A stretch of DNA of 64,000 nt, from the sequence record OR769032.1; one strand, 5' to 3'. This document shows positions 13,848-51,525 of this stretch, piece after piece. The DNA comes from Escherichia phage JoYop. The position numbers and the translations under genes are program-made. Each line of letters opens with the position of its first letter. Positions within the stretch are counted from its first letter, which is position 1. Under the pieces are notes generated by a model. The model made no database searches. It was given only the letters and a program-made list of their open reading frames with translations, and was not told the origin of the DNA.

Positions 13848-13865
13848 AAAGGGCCGAAGCCCTTT
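13848..13865 (-). terminator. UUCG-tetraloop hairpin downstream of alpha-gt
   Basis: aaagggc-cgaa-gcccttt. Confidence 0.45.
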
Positions 13866-15066
13866 ATTTTGTAATAATGTCAAACTGTTCTTTAAAACAG
13901 AAGCTTGAATCTTGGTGCTGATACAAAAATTCATAAGCTTTTTCACGTTCACGATCATAAAGAGCTCGGTCAGATGACAGTTCTTTAATTCGTTCAAATG
14001 TTGATTCCATGTCATTTTCATCAAACCAAACGATACCGCTATCATGCGAAATTAACGGAGTATTATCAACACGGAATTTTAAATTTTCGCCAGTAGATTT
14101 CCAAAATACCGGAATTGTTCCGCACGCACCAAGCTCGAGATGAGTATATTCTAAAGAACGTTGTAGATATTTTTTGTCCAACTTACTCAGCTGATAACCA
14201 AATCCGGATTTACTCATGCGTTCAAGCATTTCGCTATTTACATAACGGTCAAGAATTTGCGTTGGCAAATTAGGAGCAATTTTAATTTGGTCTACTTGAT
14301 GAAGACGATAATACTCGTATGGAATTCCTTTTTCTTTAATAGGAATGAATGCCGGAGAACGTTCCAGACCTTCCATAATAGTACTTAGTCCTGCAGGTTT
14401 AAGATGTTTTTCGTGAAAATCAAACATCTGATAAAAACCTTTCCACGTAGTTGTACGACCAATCCAACGGTTGATATTCATGTTAATTTCAGAAACATCT
14501 TTCCAGTAAGTTGATCGAACCTTCGCAATATCCATAGGAGGCTGAAAGTTATATACGGTCGGTGCTTCTTCAATATCATCAAACAAAGAAACTGTTTCTG
14601 GATACCATTCTTTCATCAAAACTTTATTAAAGTCACCATTATCAGAATGACTAAAAATAACATCAGCTCGACGAACAGTTTCTTCTAATCCCAAATTTCG
14701 GCGTAAAGAAAGAGAAGAATGGTCATGTTGATAAACTACAACACGAACAGAAGGTTTAATGTTATCAATAATTTTTTTATAGTTATTAATTGTGTCTTCT
14801 TCAACTGAAGTAGCAGGAACTGAATTGATAACTAGAATATCACAATCATTTACCAGCTTAAGTGTTTTATCGTATTCTTTTGCCAATAAAACTGGAATTG
14901 AAAATGACTTATAATCATGCGCGCAATTACGAGTAAATGATTTATCTTTAGCATAAACCAAAGTTACTTCATGACCATTTTTAATAAACCAATCACGCTG
15001 CTCAAGAGAAAATTTAGTTACGCCACAACCTTCAAGACCTCGAGCCATAAAAATGCATACTTTCAT
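13864..15066 (-). CDS. agt: DNA alpha-glucosyltransferase
   Basis: 400 aa; near-identical to T4 alpha-gt as recalled (M..CIFMARGLEGCGVTKFSLEQRDWFIKNGHEVTLVYAKDKSF). Confidence 0.95.
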   Translation of the reverse strand: MKVCIFMARGLEGCGVTKFSLEQRDWFIKNGHEVTLVYAKDKSFTRNCAHDYKSFSIPVLLAKEYDKTLKLVNDCDILVINSVPATSVEEDTINNYKKIIDNIKPSVRVVVYQHDHSSLSLRRNLGLEETVRRADVIFSHSDNGDFNKVLMKEWYPETVSLFDDIEEAPTVYNFQPPMDIAKVRSTYWKDVSEINMNINRWIGRTTTWKGFYQMFDFHEKHLKPAGLSTIMEGLERSPAFIPIKEKGIPYEYYRLHQVDQIKIAPNLPTQILDRYVNSEMLERMSKSGFGYQLSKLDKKYLQRSLEYTHLELGACGTIPVFWKSTGENLKFRVDNTPLISHDSGIVWFDENDMESTFERIKELSSDRALYDREREKAYEFLYQHQDSSFCFKEQFDIITK

Positions 15067-39793: not shown

Positions 39794-39971
39794 CTAAACG
39801 AATAGGTTCATGAATGCCATATCCTTGAACAGATATTTCTGTCGTAGGATAAATTCCATCAATATCACCCATATTCCACGCTTCATTAAATTGCTGTTCG
39901 CCTGAATTACTAAACCACTCGGCGAAAGCATTTAGCACATCTTTAGAACCTTCAATAATTATCTTTGCCAT
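39750..39971 (-). CDS. hypothetical protein
   Basis: 73-aa ORF. Confidence 0.45.
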   Translation of the reverse strand: MAKIIIEGSKDVLNAFAEWFSNSGEQQFNEAWNMGDIDGIYPTTEISVQGYGIHEPIRLVEYDLCTGEEVKYD

Positions 39972-40333
39972 TACAGACTCTCGGTAAAGGTACGAGCGAT
40001 AACGTCGCGCTGCTGTTCCGGAGTCAGAGAGTTAAAGCGAACTGCATAACCTGATACACGGATGGTCAGCTGCGGATATTTTTCCGGATGCTTAACTGCA
40101 TCTTCCAGAGTTTCACGACGCAGAACGTTAACGTTCAGGTGCTGACCACCTTCAATTTTAACTGTAGGCTGTGGCTCAATTTCAATTTCACGGGCATGCA
40201 AACCATAGAAAATTTCTGGGTCTACAAAAGAGTCCTCTTTAAAGGTTTTAGAAACGATAATTCGTGCTTGAATACCATCTTCAAAATAAATAGTACCTTT
40301 GTGCGTGCCTTCAAGAATTTGATATGCTTTCAT
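39971..40333 (-). CDS. autonomous glycyl-radical cofactor (GrcA/YfiD-like)
   Basis: 120 aa; C-terminal [28 protein letters not shown] carries the RVSGY glycyl-radical motif. Confidence 0.8.
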
Positions 40334-41318: not shown

Positions 41319-41621
41319 TTATTTACCTTTAATTACTTTAGCTGCTTCGATAGCCGCTTGCTGAAGGTCATCCATAGACATACCGAATTTAGAAGCAAAG
41401 TTATCAATTTTCTTTTCGACAGCATTCAAAGGCTTGGCCTGTTTACCTTCATTAGCGCCAGGAAGAGCGAGAATACGCTCTTTGTCAATATAAAGGCTTA
41501 CAAGTTTCTTACGGTCTTTATCGGACAAATCATGAAATGAATGGGCCTTTTTATTTATAGCGGCTTCTAATTTACCTGCACTCACTCGCGCTTCAGTAAT
41601 AAATTCTTGATAGGTTTTCAT
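41319..41621 (-). CDS. ipII: internal protein II-like
   Basis: 100 aa; N-terminal capsid-targeting sequence MKTYQEFITEA; length matches T4 IPII. Confidence 0.75.
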   Translation of the reverse strand: MKTYQEFITEARVSAGKLEAAINKKAHSFHDLSDKDRKKLVSLYIDKERILALPGANEGKQAKPLNAVEKKIDNFASKFGMSMDDLQQAAIEAAKVIKGK

Positions 41622-41661
41622 ATGTTTCCTTTAATGTAAATAGATTTGAGTATTCGTTTTA

Positions 41662-42240
41662 TTAGGAATTACGGGCTGCATTAGCAACGGCGTAAGCGTA
41701 CTGAATATTGACGTCTTTAAACGTACCTTTGGAGGTATCTATTTCTGCCTTAAAGCCGCCTTTAGTCATAACATCGGCAAATTCTTTACGGAAAGCCATT
41801 GCATCAAGACCTTTCCATGATGATTTATGCTTAGCAAATTCAAGACCAGCGTAGTTGACAGCCTTAGCTAATTTATTATCAATAACCCATTTACCGGCTT
41901 TAGGTACAAACACTGGGCCTTTCTGTTTAGAGAATAGTTTTAAATTCCAACGACGAAGGTCACCGTCAGCTTTAACAAAAGCTGCGTCCAAGTTACTAGC
42001 AACAACATCTTGAATATGGCCAAATTTAAGCCCATCAACTTCAATATTTAGATCAGTACGCCAGCGAAGTCCTTCCCAAGCGAAAGCTTTAAAGTCAGAA
42101 GCTTTTGTAGCTAAGTACCGTTCAATAGGAGCCGTTTTAGGGTCAAAGCCGTTTCCCGATCGATAGGTCCACTCATCTTTATTAATGCCTTTGGCCTTTT
42201 CCACAGAAGCTTCAGCGATAAATTCTTTATACGTTTTCAT
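41662..42240 (-). CDS. ipIII: internal protein III-like
   Basis: 192 aa; N-terminus MKTYKEFIAEA; length matches T4 IPIII. Confidence 0.75.
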   Translation of the reverse strand: MKTYKEFIAEASVEKAKGINKDEWTYRSGNGFDPKTAPIERYLATKASDFKAFAWEGLRWRTDLNIEVDGLKFGHIQDVVASNLDAAFVKADGDLRRWNLKLFSKQKGPVFVPKAGKWVIDNKLAKAVNYAGLEFAKHKSSWKGLDAMAFRKEFADVMTKGGFKAEIDTSKGTFKDVNIQYAYAVANAARNS

Positions 42241-42259
42241 GTGTTTCCTTGTTTGTTTT

Positions 42260-42298
42260 GATAGAGTAATTATACCATATTAATACTTAAGCGTAAAC
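42260..42298 (-). promoter_or_regulatory. T4-type early promoter
   Basis: GTTTAC 42293-42298 with tggtataat -10. Confidence 0.45.
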
Positions 42299-42301
42299 TG
42301 T

Positions 42302-42562
42302 TTAAGCTTTACCGCCAGAAATAATTCCGAAGTTGTTAAAATCGTATCCAATATCGTCAACATCTACTTTAGGGCTTGCTACAACATAAGCAATTTCACT
42401 ACGTTTTGCATAGGTGTTTATTTCTTTACCATCACCGCCTAGGAAAGAATACCCATTACGTTTTAATGAGCCAAAGTCTTCCGCATCACCAATGAAAGCT
42501 TTAACTTTAAATTTAGGACCTTTGGCATCTGCTTCAGTGATAAATTCTTGATACATTTTCAT
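42302..42562 (-). CDS. internal-protein-like small protein
   Basis: 86 aa; N-terminus MKMYQEFITEA matches the IP capsid-targeting motif. Confidence 0.6.
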   Translation of the reverse strand: MKMYQEFITEADAKGPKFKVKAFIGDAEDFGSLKRNGYSFLGGDGKEINTYAKRSEIAYVVASPKVDVDDIGYDFNNFGIISGGKA

Positions 42563-42568
42563 TTTTCC

Positions 42569-42982
42569 TTAGTAAATTGATTTACCATAGTATTTGTACC
42601 AAGTAGGACGTTGAGCAATTTTTTCGTCTAAGCGTGCTTGACTTATCGCAATGGACGCTTCGGACGGGACATAATTATTACGAAATTCGGCAGGGATGTC
42701 AGAAATATCCTGGACAGATGTGTCCTTGATTTTGAAACCACGTTTCAAGCATTCGGCGATTAGCTCGATTTGACGTAAACGTAAAAATTCAAGTTTGTCG
42801 TAAAAGAATGTTACATGACCTGTGCCTAAGATAAATGTTGGAGAGATTTTAAAATCCTTTACACGTTTACCGTTTTGAACATGTTTACGGACTGCACCAA
42901 ATACGCGTGGTAATTCACGATACTCAGCCATAAGATGTTGGTCGGTCAGTTCAGAAACAAGTGTTAAATTGATACGAGTCAT
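42569..42982 (-). CDS. denV: endonuclease V (pyrimidine dimer DNA glycosylase)
   Basis: Start at [12 protein letters not shown] (138 aa); matches T4 DenV as recalled. Confidence 0.92.
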
Positions 42983-42997
42983 AATTTCCTCCAAGTA

Positions 42998-43039
42998 GTT
43001 GATGAATGTATAGTATCAAAGTCCTTGGAGGAAGTAAAC
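42998..43039 (-). promoter_or_regulatory. T4-type early promoter upstream of denV
   Basis: GTTTAC 43034-43039 with a -10 block at 42998-43018. Confidence 0.45.
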
Positions 43040-43040
43040 A

Positions 43041-43322
43041 CTATTTTTCTGAAGCGCCTGAAATATATTTTTCAAGACGTTGTTTCATCAGCGAGCCGTT
43101 CTTAGCGATTTCTTCCGGTTTATCGCACATACGCAACAAAGCTTCAAGCTTAACGATATCACTGGTACGTTCAAATTTGCGAGTATCTATCTTACTAGCA
43201 AGTTCAGAAATACGTGCTAATAGACTTTCGGCTTCAACCAAAGCTGCACCTAGCTTAGTTGCAAATGTGTCAGTAGCTTCGTTAAGAATAGATTCTGATA
43301 AAAATTCACTATATGTTTTCAT
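43041..43322 (-). CDS. internal-protein-like small protein
   Basis: ATG 43320-43322 ([11 protein letters not shown]), overlapping the e stop; 93 aa. Confidence 0.6.
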
Positions 43323-43807
43323 ATATACGCTTTCCAAGTTCCTGTTTTAAATGTTGAGATTACGCGTTTCGCGCGATTAGGTGTCTGACGGTACCATTTA
43401 GATTGGGCTAGATTTACTGCCGCTTCATCCCAACGTTTCTGTTGAAGCATACGAAGAGAATTAGTAAAACCAGCGACGCCTGCTACACCCATTTGGAAGA
43501 CCATATTGACCAACGCACATCGACGAACTGCATCTAAAGAATCATATACCGGTTTAAGTTTAGCATTACCCAAGATTCCGCGAACGGCTTTATCAACGTC
43601 TTCATTAAATAGCTTTTCAGCCTCATCAAGGGTAATTGTACCGTTGCATTTACGTCCGATCATTCTGTCAAGTTCAGCTTTAGCTACGGCTAAAGACGGG
43701 TTCTTTGTTACTAAATGGCCTATGCCAATCGTCCAAAAGCCTTCAGTGTCTTTGTATAAAGTCAGTCTAAGACCTTCATCTATACGTAACATTTCAAATA
43801 TATTCAT
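43319..43807 (-). CDS. e: lysozyme (endolysin)
   Basis: 162 aa; [15 protein letters not shown]...TIGIGH; near-identical to T4 lysozyme as recalled. Confidence 0.95.
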
Positions 43808-47472: not shown

Positions 47473-47497
47473 AAAAACCCCAACCTTTCGGCTGAGG
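47473..47497 (-). terminator. rho-independent terminator downstream of the IP-like gene
   Basis: On minus strand CCUCAGCC-GAAA-GGUUGGGG plus U-run; pairing needs G-U wobbles so works only on the minus transcript. Confidence 0.6.
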
Positions 47498-47506
47498 CTA
47501 AGAATG

Positions 47507-47980
47507 TTATTTGATTTGTTTAGCAGACCAAATGCGGTCTTTAATAATTTTTTGGATGTCTTCAACATACTCAAGAGAGTGAACATGCGGGTTATCTTTG
47601 AAACTATAAGCACGAGCTAGCTTTTGGCCTTCAGTTTTGATTACTAAAAGCTCTTTAAGGATAGCTTCATATTTGGAAATAATTCCTTTAACAATATTTT
47701 TCTCTTGTGCGACTTTAGGATCTGCTTTAGGAGCAGGTTTACCTGAAGCTTTTGCAAAAGCAGCTCCAGTAGCAACTAAACTTTTCCAAGCCATACTAAC
47801 TGCATTTCCCGTAAATCCTTCTGCTTTCATATCGCGAGCAAATTGGAATCGCGATTCATCAGAAGCATCTTTATAGGAATATTTACCCGCGGCAATGGCA
47901 GCTTTTGCGACAGCTTGAATTTCGGTGCTAGATGCTTCATTTAACACCGCTTCATTTAAAAATTGAGCATATGATTTCAT
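47507..47980 (-). CDS. internal-protein-like protein with capsid-targeting N-terminus
   Basis: 157 aa; MKSYAQFLNEA; RBS AGGAAA; own late promoter upstream; bounded by terminators on both sides. Confidence 0.65.
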   Translation of the reverse strand: MKSYAQFLNEAVLNEASSTEIQAVAKAAIAAGKYSYKDASDESRFQFARDMKAEGFTGNAVSMAWKSLVATGAAFAKASGKPAPKADPKVAQEKNIVKGIISKYEAILKELLVIKTEGQKLARAYSFKDNPHVHSLEYVEDIQKIIKDRIWSAKQIK

Positions 47981-48016
47981 CTTATTTCCTGTTTTAATTC
48001 GGGGTTTTAATATACT

Positions 48017-48024
48017 TATTTATA
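48017..48024 (-). promoter_or_regulatory. T4-type late promoter (TATAAATA)
   Basis: tatttata on plus = TATAAATA on minus, about 37 nt upstream of the ATG at 47980. Confidence 0.5.
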
Positions 48025-48026
48025 CT

Positions 48027-48053
48027 AAAAAGCCCCAACCTTTCGGTTGGGGC
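48027..48053 (-). terminator. rho-independent terminator
   Basis: Minus strand GCCCCAACC-GAAA-GGUUGGGGC followed by UUUUU. Confidence 0.7.
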
Positions 48054-48059
48054 TAAGCC

Positions 48060-48385
48060 TTGCGGCAACCTTGTCGGGGTTCCACCTGCTAAGGCAAGTG
48101 TTTGTACGAAACGCCGGGATTCGAACCCGGTTATCAAGCAGTTGACGCTACTCAATATTTTTAAAAGGCCATATCTCGACCATATCCGAACGTTCCGTCA
48201 AAAACGCTACTCGGCTTACGGCAAAGATATTTCCTCGAATCGATAATTCGGTGCGCCGTTTCTGCTGTGATATAAGGGAACATTAACAGATCGTAAAGAT
48301 TTGTTAATGCCGGTCCTTAAACAGGGAGCATCAGTCCGACGACTTACCGGTAGCGACCCGGTTTCTTAATATTCTTTTAAAGCAT
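48060..48385 (-). ncRNA. structured non-coding RNA region distal to the tRNA cluster (possible T4 stable-RNA homolog)
   Basis: No convincing ORF; tRNA-like T-arm gggattcgaacccgg at 48116-48130; bounded by terminator and tRNA-Arg side gene. Confidence 0.35.
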
Positions 48386-48389
48386 CAAT

Positions 48390-48716
48390 TTATTCACAGC
48401 GTTTACGCCATAAATCAATTGCTTCATAAGCGGATTCAGCATTTCGAATTAGCCGGCATTTATGTAAAGACTTATGATTTTGATATTGTGTAGATAATGG
48501 AATTGTATCTAAAAGGTCTTTACGATCAAAGTATTCGTAACCATCTAAACCAAATGAACGATTTTTGAGAAATTGCCAATGGCCAAATTCATTTTCAACA
48601 TAAACATAATCTGCATGCTGATAAAGCAAATTAATTACGCGTTCAGAAATAACAGTATCATTATGATTAAAATAAAATGTTAAATCATGAACTACTAAAT
48701 AAACATTACCTTTCAT
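48390..48716 (-). CDS. hypothetical protein inside the tRNA/ncRNA region
   Basis: ATG 48714-48716 with RBS GAGGA (MKGNVYLVVHDL...); 108 aa; track ORF over-extended into tRNA-Arg. Confidence 0.55.
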   Translation of the reverse strand: MKGNVYLVVHDLTFYFNHNDTVISERVINLLYQHADYVYVENEFGHWQFLKNRSFGLDGYEYFDRKDLLDTIPLSTQYQNHKSLHKCRLIRNAESAYEAIDLWRKRCE

Positions 48717-48734
48717 ATTTTCCTCACTTATAAT

Positions 48735-48811
<77 letters not shown>

Positions 48812-48815
48812 TATT

Positions 48816-48890
48816 TGGCGGACATGCATGGATTCGAACCATGGACCAATTGATTAACAGTCAACTGCTCTACCACTGAGCTACACATCC
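48816..48890 (-). tRNA. tRNA-Asn (anticodon GUU)
   Basis: GGATGTG...GCTCAGTGGTAGAGC D-arm, loop CTGTTAA, T-arm CATGGTTCGAATCCATG, CCA end. Confidence 0.8.
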
Positions 48891-48894
48891 AAAT

Positions 48895-48981
48895 TGGTGG
48901 GGAGTGATGGAGTCGAACCACCCGAGTCGCAATGACAATGGATTTACAGTCCACACCGCTACCTCTACGGGATAACTCCCC
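48895..48981 (-). tRNA. tRNA-Tyr (anticodon GUA), long variable arm
   Basis: Loop CTGTAAA; class II variable arm; acceptor GGGGAGT/ACTCCCC; CCA end. Confidence 0.75.
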
Positions 48982-48994
48982 TTAATTCTTAATT

Positions 48995-49069
48995 TGGTGG
49001 CCCTGGGTGGAATTGAACCACCATCTGGCGATTATGAGTCGCTTGCTTGAACCTTCCAGCTACAGGGCC
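48995..49069 (-). tRNA. tRNA with CAU anticodon (Met, or Ile if the wobble C is modified as in T4)
   Basis: Loop CTCATAA; acceptor GGCCCTG/CAGGGCC; T-arm GGTGGTTCAATTCCACC. Confidence 0.75.
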
Positions 49070-49070
49070 T

Positions 49071-49146
49071 TGGTGCTGATTGACGGAATCGAACCGCCGA
49101 CCTTCTCATTACAAGTGAGTTGCTCTACCTACTGAGCTAAATCAGC
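49071..49146 (-). tRNA. tRNA-Thr (anticodon UGU)
   Basis: Loop CTTGTAA; acceptor GCTGATT/AATCAGC; T-arm GGCGGTTCGATTCCGTC. Confidence 0.8.
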
Positions 49147-49150
49147 AAAA

Positions 49151-49241
49151 CTGGCGGAGGCGATAGGATTTGAACCTATGAGTCGCCGGAGCGACTGCCG
49201 GTTTTCAAGACCGGTGCATTAAACCACTCTGCCACGCCTCC
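49151..49241 (-). tRNA. tRNA-Ser (anticodon UGA), long variable arm
   Basis: Loop CTTGAAA in CCGGT/ACCGG stem; class II variable arm; acceptor GGAGGCG/CGCCTCC. Confidence 0.8.
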
Positions 49242-49243
49242 AG

Positions 49244-49317
49244 TCTCCATACAAGGATTTGAACCTTGGACCTCCTGATCCCAAATCAGGCGCTCTACCA
49301 AACTGAGCTACACGGAG
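49244..49317 (-). tRNA. tRNA-Pro (anticodon UGG), CCA not encoded
   Basis: Loop TTTGGGA; C1-G72 acceptor; 3' end abuts tRNA-Ser without CCA. Confidence 0.75.
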
Positions 49318-49327
49318 TAAATTAAAT

Positions 49328-49401
<74 letters not shown>

Positions 49402-49406
49402 AAATT

Positions 49407-49493
49407 TGGTGCGAGAAGTGGGACTCGAACCCACAAGGAAATCATTCCGCAGCATTTTAAGTGCTGTGCCTTTACCAATTTGACCATTCTCGC
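49407..49493 (-). tRNA. tRNA-Leu (anticodon UAA), long variable arm
   Basis: Loop CTTAAAA in CAGCA/TGCTG stem; class II variable arm; T-arm GTGGGTTCGAGTCCCAC. Confidence 0.8.
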
Positions 49494-49499
49494 GCTATA

Positions 49500-50132
49500 T
49501 TATTTATTACGTGAAAAAGACTGTTCTATCAATTCTGGACACTTTCGTTCTATCCATTTTCTAGCTTTTTGTGGGCTTATACCTATTATTTTAGCAGCTT
49601 TACTAACCCATCCAAATTTAGAATAATCGATTTTAACTAATTCTTCGTAAATTTCATCAGTTAAAATCTTTTCATTAATATTTACCAGTAAATGATATAA
49701 TTTATTATCATTAGCAATTTTAATGAATCTTTTATAGTTTCCGCCTTTACTTAAACCTAATGAAGTAATTGCAGATGATATAGTAGCCGAATTTAATAGT
49801 GCGTTTAAAATTTCTTCATCACTAACATTATAACGCTTTTTATTATTTTTAATATTTTTACCAGCAAAAGTATCAGTTTGCGAATGGCAATTTGGACATA
49901 ATAATCTTAAATTTGATTTAAGATGATTTTTGTTATTTCCATCAATATGATCTAATTGCAGAACAATATGCTTATTTTGCCATTTTGAAATTTTACAAAT
50001 TGCACACTCATATGGAAAAATATTTTCTTTTATTATTTTGTCTTTCAGCTTTCCTGTACTAAAATTTGGATGTTTTCCTTCAAAAATTTCAGCTAATTTA
50101 GTATCCATAATATAATTCCCAATTATTAACAA
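49500..50132 (-). CDS. HNH homing endonuclease
   Basis: 210 aa; HNH core LQLDHIDGNNKNHLKSNLRLLCPNCHSQ; sits at the 5' head of the tRNA cluster. Confidence 0.75.
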   Translation of the reverse strand: MLIIGNYIMDTKLAEIFEGKHPNFSTGKLKDKIIKENIFPYECAICKISKWQNKHIVLQLDHIDGNNKNHLKSNLRLLCPNCHSQTDTFAGKNIKNNKKRYNVSDEEILNALLNSATISSAITSLGLSKGGNYKRFIKIANDNKLYHLLVNINEKILTDEIYEELVKIDYSKFGWVSKAAKIIGISPQKARKWIERKCPELIEQSFSRNK

Positions 50133-51090: not shown

Positions 51091-51134
51091 TAGTTGATAG
51101 GGTAATAGTATCACTACCCCATCTAAAAGTAAAC
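51091..51134 (-). promoter_or_regulatory. T4-type early promoter
   Basis: GTTTAC 51129-51134 with -10 block ggtagtgatactattaccc on the transcribed strand. Confidence 0.45.
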
Positions 51135-51144
51135 AGTTTATAAA

Positions 51145-51453
51145 CTATTTTATTCCGCGTGATGCAATTGTATTCTGTCGTTTAACACTAGTTTGTTTAA
51201 AGTCATGATTGTCGATTTGATCGGTACGAGCAACCCCGAATGATGATTTAATCTTAGCTTTAGATCCTTTAGTTATAGAAATAAACATCTCGGAAGCCCC
51301 TTTCTTAAAGTCAGAAGCGATTACTTCAACACCGTTCTTAGCAAGTGACCCCAGAATTGCCTCCGCATACTCATCGTCAAGACTAGCCTGAGTATTAATA
51401 ACGAATGTCTTTGGTGCAACTGCTTCATTGATAAATTCTTTGAAAGTTTTCAT
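51145..51453 (-). CDS. internal-protein-like protein at the ipI locus
   Basis: 102 aa; N-terminus MKTFKEFINEA; adjacent to 57B as T4 ipI is; body differs from what I recall of T4 IPI. Confidence 0.6.
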   Translation of the reverse strand: MKTFKEFINEAVAPKTFVINTQASLDDEYAEAILGSLAKNGVEVIASDFKKGASEMFISITKGSKAKIKSSFGVARTDQIDNHDFKQTSVKRQNTIASRGIK

Positions 51454-51480
51454 TTTATTTTCCTAATTAATTTTGATGAG

Positions 51481-51513
51481 ATAATAGTATCACTACCTCA
51501 TCAGTATGTAAAC
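51481..51513 (-). promoter_or_regulatory. T4-type early promoter upstream of the ipI-locus gene
   Basis: GTTTAC 51508-51513. Confidence 0.45.
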
Positions 51514-51525
51514 AACTTTGTGAAA

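Follow-up and report, generated by a model that had tools for sequence, protein, structure and literature searches.

The capsid targeting sequence (CTS) of the T4 internal proteins was reportedly defined by Mullaney and Black in 1996, and the polymorphic internal proteins of the T-even phages, of the Ip4–Ip10 type, are said to have been described by Repoila et al. in 1994. The internal-protein system has been known since 1994–1996, and it is already embodied in RefSeq and PHROG labels. The first 10 residues of IPIII are enough for packaging, and with the 10-residue peptide foreign proteins too are brought into T4 heads; residues 4 and 7 govern targeting and residues 8 and 10 govern processing, amber-suppressor substitutions at these four positions altering one or the other, and the prohead protease gp21 cuts after L/I-x-E (PMC9026906). 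Gene 21, for this protease, and gene 22, for the scaffold, are core genes in Tequatrovirus (PMC9026906). Both lie outside the 64-kb stretch of Escherichia phage JoYop analysed here (the window), which is 92–97% identical to Tequatrovirus genomes.

Each of Ip1, Ip2 and Ip3 blocks a distinct GmrSD enzyme, and when Silas et al. set ip4–ip10 against 15 GmrSD groups no reproducible inhibition was seen (PMC12373910), so that a GmrSD target is unproven for proteins of the Ip5 and Ip7 types. McrBC is blocked by Bas37_0260, which bears a CTS and is encoded at the ipI locus in phage KarlGJung (Bas37) (HIDEN-SEQ preprint, 10.1101/2025.11.20.689424). The Dar proteins of P1 and the ejection proteins of P22 and T7 likewise travel in the head and enter the cell along with the DNA, and some guard that DNA from restriction, but they are unrelated in sequence, are incorporated by other mechanisms and lack a short cleavable CTS of this kind. 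Internal proteins are not mentioned in Petrov 2010.

Six ORFs in the window, all on the minus strand and referred to here as A to F, start with the T4 CTS. The likeness to T4 IPI, IPII and IPIII extends to the rules of the 10-residue propeptide, to the loci (by e/denV and by 57B) and to the character of small, non-essential proteins. T4, however, has three such genes where the window has six, its ipI slot is filled in the window by Ip7 and not by IPI, and IPI has a longer propeptide, of 19 residues. With Ip4–Ip10 the window shares an arrangement in which a single CTS precedes mature domains unrelated to one another, F matching Ip7, D being a homologue of Ip5 and C standing further off; unlike them, D lies beside the lysozyme gene e rather than at the ipI locus, and the family of E is not named Ip among the matches listed. 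Bas37_0260 resembles A–F in having a CTS, in its small size and in its hypervariable locus, and its target is a type IV restriction system. Homology of A–F to this McrBC inhibitor was nevertheless rejected, since only the CTS matches, and the window thus holds no orthologue of it. Only E adds a little to what is known.

Six genes with the T4 targeting sequence

A first-pass annotation of this DNA had described four motif-bearing ORFs around denV, with two further copies at 47507 and 51145. The genes concerned, with their two context genes, are as follows.

41319..41621, minus strand: A, ipII homologue, 100 aa, N-terminus MKTYQEFITEA; phrog_7857 'internal virion protein', E=4.5e-55
41662..42240, minus strand: B, ipIII homologue, 192 aa, N-terminus MKTYKEFIAEA; phrog_5341, E=1.9e-117
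42302..42562, minus strand: C, 86-aa CTS protein directly downstream of denV, N-terminus MKMYQEFITEA; phrog_2667 'internal head protein', E=2.7e-21
42569..42982, minus strand: denV (endonuclease V), context gene and not a member (ORF list)
43041..43322, minus strand: D, 93-aa CTS protein, starting with the 11-residue motif; phrog_3499 'internal head protein', E=1.2e-46
43319..43807, minus strand: e (lysozyme), context gene (ORF list)
47507..47980, minus strand: E, 157-aa CTS protein, N-terminus MKSYAQFLNEA; phrog_2280, labelled unknown function, E=9e-61
51145..51453, minus strand: F, Ip7, 102 aa, N-terminus MKTFKEFINEA; phrog_2667, E=4.3e-41

The ORF list, together with a scan of all six frames of the window, places the four ORFs around denV on the minus strand at the coordinates claimed for them. 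The motif on which that claim was based, M-K-[TM]-Y-x-E-F-[IL]-x-E-[AS], matches only A–D, and a relaxed version matches A–F and nothing else, confirming the two further copies and the total of six. The minimal pattern MK.[YF]..F, sought in window ORFs of at least 40 aa, is likewise found in A–F only, each time at the first Met. For D the mechanical ORF start is a TTG at 43337, and the ATG at 43322 was adopted, as in annotated homologues; it overlaps the stop codon of e (ATGA).

All six N-termini satisfy the experimentally defined rules for the CTS (PMC9026906), which supports the earlier proposal that these are capsid-targeted internal proteins. Phe-7 is present in 6/6 and Tyr-4 in 5/6, F alone having Phe-4, as does T4 IPI. 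Residues 8–11, spanning the predicted cut after Glu-10, read ITE↓A in A and C, IAE↓A in B, LSE↓S in D, LNE↓A in E and INE↓A in F. A second site lies five residues further on in D, where the 10-residue CTS is followed by ILNE↓A, and in E, where the cleavage motif forms a tandem duplicate (MKSYAQFLNE↓AVLNE↓A). The predicted mature products have 90 residues for A (pI 9.7), 182 for B (pI 9.6), 76 for C (pI 6.4), about 142–147 for E (pI 9.5) and 92 for F (pI 9.5).

Beyond the propeptide the six proteins have little in common. By BLASTP their mature parts are mutually unrelated, with the sole exception of the pair C and F, so A–F are not one homologous family; what they share is the targeting propeptide. 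A and B, called IPII-like and IPIII-like in the first pass, are indeed direct orthologues of T4 IPII and IPIII, with 94% identity over 86 aa and over 190 aa, respectively. F is to be identified by its sequence as Ip7 (97% identity to RB15 Ip7, Z35082, and 95–96% to RB32/T2 Ip7), and it occupies the ipI locus, adjoining 57B in synteny with T4 ipI. C and D had been thought to lack an assigned function, but both already belong to PHROG families labelled internal head protein. C is a distant paralogue of Ip7: it has 29% identity to F along its own length, both fall in phrog_2667, and copies of C that are 95–99% identical occur in 133 phage records, some of them labelled internal head protein. D is a relative of Ip5, with 48% identity to Ip5 of RB32/T2 (E=1e-15) and to Bas37_0261, and copies of the protein at least 99% identical to it occur in 132 records. 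RefSeq labels in phi25-307 and RB69 agree with these internal-protein identities.

The families are narrow and their alignments shallow. A set of 5.8 billion proteins yielded no more than 12–14 clusters for each family, and these came without exception from T4-like phages or from unlabelled contigs. For A–F, Pfam gave no match above threshold and NCBIfam no match, and Rfam found only tRNAs between 40 and 53 kb. Structure prediction, which had been advised for the mature domains, was applied to C and E and brought no functional clue. The AlphaFold2 model of C, made with a 17-sequence C/Ip7 alignment, has a pLDDT of 44.7 and is unusable, and PDB sequence searches with C and F returned noise only. 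E is predicted to be all-helical (pLDDT 71.4) and to contain a long helical hairpin as well as a linker rich in Lys, Ala and Pro, and a Foldseek comparison of this model with the PDB gave nothing below E=0.9.

Proposed packaging, injection and anti-defence action

How might these proteins act? We conclude that the six genes encode T4-type internal proteins that are targeted by the CTS, cleaved by gp21 and injected together with the DNA, and that neutralise host defences with a repertoire varying by cassette exchange; we put the probability of this reading at roughly 85%. For C–F, packaging and anti-defence action would follow from the sequence rules given above, and targeting, cleavage and injection, like the targets of Ip1–3, are carried over by analogy from the T4 literature. 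The first 10 residues of each precursor would act as the CTS and bind to the scaffolding core as the prohead assembles, and the protein would thereby be enclosed when the shell forms. Cleavage by gp21 after Glu-10 (I/L-x-E↓A/S) would then release mature proteins of 76–182 residues, which would be retained in the head with the DNA. On infection they would be ejected with that DNA, ahead of any phage gene expression, and first-line host defences could thereby be neutralised.

The window encodes an alpha-glucosyltransferase (PF11440, E=5e-236) and a second glycosyltransferase, and at the position of gene 42 it encodes a member of the thymidylate synthase family. These are enzymes of hydroxymethylcytosine (hmC) glucosylation, and judged from such genes the phage DNA probably carries glucosyl-hmC. 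Glucosylated hmC is the DNA modification attacked by GmrSD-type restriction enzymes. Because of the 94% identity of A and B to T4 IPII and IPIII, their likely targets are GmrSD-type type IV restriction enzymes, as for T4 Ip2 and Ip3; for C–F, other modification-dependent restriction enzymes would be the most likely targets.

Alternatively, part of the set, and above all the basic proteins A, B, E and F, might be mainly structural, as DNA-associated or core proteins that aid condensation or ejection of the genome. The mature pI of 9.5–9.7 of these four and the helical hairpin predicted for E would suit such a role, as would the presence of about 1000 internal protein molecules within packaged T4 DNA (PMC3012670). 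T4 Ip2 and Ip3 are themselves basic, however, and yet are specific GmrSD inhibitors, Ip3 being active when a form lacking the CTS is expressed in the host (PMC12373910, PMC9391042). The genes are, moreover, variably present among close relatives, which fits accessory rather than structural functions, and a mainly structural role seems to us unlikely.

It is more improbable still that one or more of C–F carry a relic CTS, having lost packaging and become ordinary cytoplasmic phage proteins. The elements that flank these genes are as follows.

42258..42299, minus strand: early-promoter-like element upstream of ipIII (TTTACG N17 TATAAT, with TG; promoter scan, 10/12 match)
47473..47502, minus strand: terminator hairpin downstream of E (terminator scan; fold -15.2 kcal/mol, z=-3.5)
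48017..48057, minus strand: upstream boundary of the E cassette, terminator hairpin 48057-48028 and then late promoter TATAAATA 48024-48017
51094..51135, minus strand: PeSL-like promoter and stem-loop downstream of F (repeat family D2; 12-bp hairpin, z=-2.3)
51473..51514, minus strand: promoter and stem-loop upstream of F (TTTACA N17 TACTAT; 13-bp hairpin, z=-3.3)

In favour of a relic CTS, ipIII and F have early-type promoters ahead of them, and C comes immediately after the early gene denV. The CTS of RB69 ORF123c is degenerate (MKTYQEFIAAV) and lacks Glu-10, showing that CTS decay does occur. In A–F, however, all functionally defined CTS residues are kept, D is 100% conserved as a protein at a dS of about 0.1, and both D and E have late promoters: E has a TATAAATA box 37 nt ahead of its ATG, and two more upstream of e (43841-43834 and 43828-43821, minus strand) would transcribe D too. 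T4 itself makes its internal proteins from early as well as late transcripts.

Conserved 5' ends and the exchange of cassettes

The six 5' ends form the largest direct-repeat family between 40 and 53 kb, a 42-nt repeat that takes in the ribosome-binding site and codons 1–11 (family D1). Mean pairwise nucleotide identity among A–F is 0.75 in codons 1–11, 0.35 upstream and 0.29–0.34 in the next 66 nt, the likeness ending sharply past codon 11. Four-fold degenerate sites within these codons vary freely, Thr-3 being written ACC, ACG, ACA or ACT and Ala-11 GCG, GCT or GCA. Since these sites vary while the amino acids are kept, the CTS appears to be conserved through selection at the protein level, and of the six columns that are invariant in the alignment of the C/F family, four belong to the CTS (E6, F7, I8 and E10).

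The same figures weigh on the idea that the conserved 5' end is chiefly a nucleic-acid element, either a translation initiation region or a recombination handle, of which the peptide is a by-product. The ribosome-binding site within the repeat, the identity of 0.75 over the 11 codons and the recombination junctions found within the repeat would all agree with it. Against this stand the unconserved four-fold positions, the low identity upstream of the ATG, the T4 substitutions at residues 4, 7, 8 and 10 and the carriage of foreign proteins by the peptide itself (PMC9026906), and we hold the idea to be very improbable. A role of the 5' end in recombination is compatible with the internal-protein reading and does not replace it. 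The N-terminal comparison called for in the first pass shows the similarity over codons 1–11 to be real: chance or trivial recent duplication, in favour of which only the shortness of the motif can be cited, has a negligible probability, since 20 shuffles of the window gave 0 matches for each motif version, no match exists elsewhere in the six frames of the 64 kb, every match falls at the first Met of an ORF, the motif is kept in distant Klebsiella and Yersinia phage homologues, and the unrelated mature parts argue against simple gene duplication.

The six genes had also been called a diversifying family. Variety there is, through gain, loss and replacement of whole gene cassettes, but the genes are not one family, nor do they show fast substitution: dN/dS of orthologue pairs lies between 0 and 0.34, so that gene-wide positive selection is unsupported, and D and A have 100% protein identity to their phi25-307 counterparts despite a dS of about 0.1. 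Synteny with T4, RB69, phi25-307, Bas37 and T2 places the hypervariable ip loci next to e/denV and in the interval from 57B to the tRNA region. Around denV the gene order is e-ipIII-ipII-denV in T4 and e-D-denV-C-ipIII-ipII here, denV thus lying between two CTS genes as in RB69 and unlike T4; it has only 78% nucleotide identity to T4 denV, compared with 91–95% in its flanks. The recombination junctions are the conserved CTS-coding 5' ends together with flanking promoter or terminator hairpin repeats. In phi25-307 an extra CTS gene has indel end-points within the CTS codons, and in the replacement of ipI by Ip7 relative to T4 one switch falls past codon 7 and a second in the hairpin repeat downstream (51094..51135), where T4 homology resumes.

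These repeats somewhat recall the PeSLs, cassettes of a promoter and a stem-loop that are mobile in T4-type phages (Arbiol 2010, PMC2839356; Comeau 2014, PMC4122927). Much as with PeSLs, variable genes in hyperplastic regions are concerned, and F lies between 42-nt direct repeats, each with a promoter of the type TTTACW-N17-TAYWAT and a hairpin of 12–13 bp; the upstream element at 51473..51514 is a direct repeat of 51094-51135, and the two bound the ipI/Ip7 replacement. The third copy of this repeat (family D2) is the element upstream of ipIII, in which folding found no stable hairpin. There are differences, however: the hairpin here overlaps the -10 region, the E cassette has repeats of a terminator and a late promoter rather than early promoters, and one type of junction lies in coding sequence, the CTS.

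The E family and the value of the repertoire

E belongs to a family matched by 511 phage records and called 'hypothetical' in all 40 among the matches listed. A CTS-like N-terminus is kept in nearly all aligned full-length members, including those at 35–42% identity. E was not found in T4, nor at the corresponding slot in T2; the slot that it occupies, with e.8 on one side and the tRNA/rnaC region on the other, is the site of RB69 ORF149c, Bas37_0243 and Bas37_0244 as well. The gene sits in an insert of about 520 bp bounded by 30-nt terminator repeats, in the order terminator, late promoter, gene, terminator. The upstream hairpin (fold -21 kcal/mol, z=-4.1) and the downstream one are direct repeats of each other, 90% identical and 555 bp apart (family D6). 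From these sequence features we think it rather likely that E, RB69 ORF149c and Bas37_0243/Bas37_0244 belong together in an internal-protein family, hitherto unrecognised, at a third ip locus, E itself being carried here on a cassette that is self-contained; distant relatives of E have another C-terminal half, pointing to an injected effector of modular build.

The practical value of these results is modest, namely an inventory of six internal proteins, two with inferable targets and four orphans, and a family, that of E, which annotation pipelines have missed. Clear examples of the points at which internal-protein genes are swapped are provided by the CTS codons and by the hairpin repeats that flank the genes. 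Finally, internal proteins are the earliest phage products to face host immunity, and each one that has been characterised blocks one specific type IV restriction enzyme, so that knowledge of the full set in a phage helps to predict and to engineer its host range.

The capsid targeting sequence and the proteins behind it

The region belongs to the genome of a T4-like phage, with transcription on the minus strand, and it is confirmed that six genes here carry at their N-terminus the capsid targeting sequence (CTS), the 10-residue propeptide of the T4 internal proteins (Ips). The ORFs proposed in the first-pass annotation, four around the endonuclease V gene denV and two further ones, are all present in the ORF list, the four with precisely the coordinates given.

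The six CTS genes
A: 41319-41621, minus strand, 94% identical to T4 IPII
B: 41662-42240, minus strand, 94% identical to T4 IPIII
C: 42302-42562, minus strand, PHROG shared with Ip7 (E=2.7e-21), only 29% identity to F
D: 43041-43322, minus strand, 48% identity to Bas37_0261 and to the Ip5 protein of RB32/T2; member of phrog_3499, 'internal head protein'
E: 47507-47980, minus strand, phrog_2280, PHROG function label unknown
F: 51145-51453, minus strand, 97% identity with Ip7 as recorded for RB15, and 95-96% with the RB32 and T2 Ip7 proteins

In a six-frame regular-expression scan of the 64 kb, the motif as first proposed matches only the four ORFs around denV, and a relaxed version matches these six and no others; no version found a match in 20 shuffles of the window. 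The four-residue skeleton MK.[YF]..F occurs among ORFs of at least 40 residues only at these six sites, in every case at the first Met of the ORF. Independently of the motif scan, a repeat search showed the six 5' ends to be the largest direct-repeat family (D1) between 40 and 53 kb. Pairwise nucleotide identity among the six is 0.75 over codons 1-11, but falls to 0.35 in the preceding 30 nt and to 0.29-0.34 in the 66 nt after codon 11, and the similarity is thus a sharply bounded 33-nt block.

In T4, residues 1-10 of IPIII are enough for incorporation into the head, with residues 4 and 7 of the CTS important for targeting and residues 8 and 10 for processing by the prohead protease gp21, which cleaves after L/I-x-E (review of Black's work, PMC9026906). 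When aligned, all six N-termini fit these rules, with Tyr or Phe at position 4, Phe at 7, Ile or Leu at 8 and Glu at 10, followed by Ala or Ser. In four genes Thr-3 is encoded by ACC, ACG, ACA and ACT, and Ala-11 is encoded variously by GCG, GCT and GCA; such variation in codons with retention of residues implies that the constraint acts on the protein. Simple DNA homogenisation of the block is ruled out by these same codon differences. A second cleavage motif is found five residues downstream in both D (LSE/S-ILNE/A) and E (LNE/A-VLNE/A). In E a 15-nt tandem duplication at 47930-47959 (TTAAATGAAGC repeated) doubles the predicted gp21 motif (LNEAV-LNEAS), some members of the E family having a single copy; the analogous double site in D, at 43276-43298 (LSES-ILNEA), has no nucleotide-level repetition. 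The doubled sites may provide redundancy in propeptide removal.

The first-pass interpretation, that these are probably capsid-targeted internal proteins with ipII and ipIII among them, is right in substance as judged from homology and the CTS rules, and A and B bear out the ipII-like and ipIII-like assignments. The view of C and D as lacking any assigned function does not hold, since both already belong to PHROGs labelled 'internal head protein'. RefSeq gives the same label to their counterparts, and to that of F, in phi25-307 and RB69. Copies of C at 95-99% identity occur in 133 phage records, and copies of D at 99% identity or above in 132. The description of the six as a 'diversifying family' needs qualification on both words. 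The propeptide is common to all, but no mutual similarity is detectable among the mature parts, the C/F pair excepted; the C/F family alignment has six invariant columns, of which four are CTS residues (E6, F7, I8 and E10). The six are thus unrelated domains behind a common propeptide, not one family. Diversification applies to gene content and not to the substitution pattern. Between orthologues dN/dS is 0-0.34, and the D and A proteins are identical to their phi25-307 copies at dS values of 0.105 and 0.085, respectively; individual CTS genes are under purifying selection.

Two further CTS proteins were seen in relatives. RB69 ORF123c (RB69 comparison segment 3450-3779) begins MKTYQEFIAAV, a CTS without Glu-10, and may be targeted but not cleaved, or decaying. 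T2 (comparison segment 1930-2403) has an unrelated 157-aa CTS protein beside the lysozyme gene e, spuriously annotated as 'valyl tRNA synthetase modifier'.

Gene order, junctions and expression signals

In its backbone the window resembles a Tequatrovirus, with 95-96% identity to Sf23 and R5505 across the initial 25 kb. The order around denV is e-D-denV-C-ipIII-ipII-vs.8, whereas in T4 it is e-ipIII-ipII-denV-vs.8; denV thus lies between e and ipIII here and after ipII in T4. It is only 78% identical to T4 denV, compared with 91-95% for the flanking genes (window 42251-43323, T4 comparison segment 3864-5514). The e-D-denV-C part is the same in RB69 and phi25-307, and the D-denV-C block matches this Mosigvirus arrangement within an otherwise Tequatrovirus-like backbone.

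In phi25-307 an extra CTS gene lies between C and ipIII. Sequence upstream of that gene is essentially identical to that upstream of ipIII in the window, through the CTS codons, after which the window switches to ipIII; the end-points of the phi25-307 indel therefore lie inside the CTS repeat. Where Ip7 (F) replaces ipI, 97% homology with T4 extends 22 nt into the coding sequence, as far as codon 7. It picks up again 31 nt beyond the stop codon, within a 42-nt element that combines a promoter and a hairpin and has copies on both sides of F. Relative to T4, gene E is an insertion of about 520 bp (window 47473-48057), and at each end of it stands a copy of a terminator hairpin, the two copies being 30-nt direct repeats with 90% identity. 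A perfect late promoter, TATAAATA, directly follows the first, strong hairpin, 37 nt upstream of the ATG, and the second hairpin copy follows the stop codon. T4 has at this slot a single hairpin copy and no gene, T2 also lacks E at this position, and Bas37 has E and a second family member in tandem. Such repertoire changes match the modular shuffling known from T4-type phages (PMC2839356; PMC4122927).

Elsewhere, the start codon of D overlaps the e stop codon (ATGA), with two TATAAATA boxes upstream of e; C lies 6 nt downstream of denV; and T4 early-type promoters (TTTAC-N17-TAtaAT) precede ipIII and F. A perfect late-promoter box, TATAAATA, also lies within ipII (41552-41559, minus strand), 62 nt past the start; it may be a chance occurrence, or genes further downstream may be transcribed late from it.

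Several neighbouring features were recorded.

39971-40333, minus strand: 120-aa ORF with a glycyl-radical-type C-terminus (RVSGYAV...), counterpart of T4 vs.6, which is annotated as autonomous glycyl radical cofactor GrcA
48022-48366: 92% identical to the T4 segment holding small stable RNAs rnaC and rnaD; no Rfam family at gathering threshold and no ARAGORN tRNA, with part resembling a tRNA 3' end (repeat D3, with tRNA-Arg/Asn)
48390-48764, minus strand: 124-aa ORF located between E and the tRNAs, with about 30 nt of overlap between its 5' end and tRNA-Arg; similar-size counterparts in RB69, Bas37 and T2 are 'hypothetical'
48735-49493: nine tRNA genes (Arg, Asn, Tyr, Met, Thr, Ser, Pro, Gly, Leu), abutting the next ORF
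49500-50132, minus strand: 210-aa ORF with an HNH-type motif (...HIDGNNKNH...CPNCH...); Bas37 has a 'putative homing endonuclease' at the equivalent spot, and in T4 the GIY-YIG endonuclease SegB is encoded elsewhere in the tRNA cluster

A probable role against restriction

Three DNA-modification enzymes are encoded in the window.

1412-2991 and 13864-15066, minus strand: DNA hypermodification genes (gene-42-position protein, adjacent glycosyltransferase, alpha-glucosyltransferase)

The alpha-glucosyltransferase is recognised by PF11440 (E=5e-236). In phage Sf23, which is 95.6% identical, the thymidylate-synthase-family protein at the gene 42 position carries the annotation dCMP hydroxymethylase, and the glycosyltransferase adjoining it is annotated as beta-glucosyl-HMC-alpha-glucosyltransferase. 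Together these genes imply T2/T6-style glucosylation: the phage DNA very probably contains glucosyl-hmC, on which GmrSD-type type IV restriction enzymes act.

Published Ip functions point the same way. Each of T4 Ip1, Ip2 and Ip3 inhibits a GmrSD enzyme of its own, and none protects against the enzymes of the others (Silas et al. 2025, PMC12373910); IPIII is required on ECOR17 and, when made in the host, functions in a form lacking the CTS (Srikant et al. 2022, PMC9391042); and a Bas37 CTS protein at the ipI locus inhibits McrBC (2025 preprint, 10.1101/2025.11.20.689424). On the modification genes and these published functions, an anti-restriction role is the best functional guess for the six proteins. 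Given their 94% identity to T4 IPII and IPIII, A and B are likely to have the same targets as T4 Ip2 and Ip3; for C-F an anti-restriction role is putative. Ip4-10 gave no reproducible inhibition of 15 GmrSD groups (Silas et al., PMC12373910), and none of the six resembles the Bas37 McrBC inhibitor beyond the CTS.

Gene E, a candidate internal protein

The CTS reportedly goes back to Mullaney and Black in 1996. Polymorphic Ips are credited to Repoila et al. (1994), as relayed in PMC3012670 and PMC12373910. The six-gene finding is thus an instance of something that has been well documented in T-even phages from the 1990s on, and PHROG and RefSeq labels already mark five of the six genes.

The sixth is E. 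A CTS-like N-terminus is kept in nearly all full-length homologues aligned, including those of Klebsiella and Yersinia phages, which have only 35-42% identity and differ in their C-terminal halves. In structure prediction, a check named in the first-pass annotation, E gave a moderate, all-helical model (pLDDT 71.4) with no significant match among PDB folds, and C gave a model too poor to use (pLDDT 44.7). Sequence searches of Pfam, NCBIfam and the PDB yielded no hits. Each family is narrow, comprising 12-14 clusters in a large protein set. The clean junction examples are a secondary point beside E. The only increment is E itself, which has 511 matching phage records, is a 'hypothetical protein' in all 40 rows among the matches listed, and on every sequence criterion would be an internal protein.
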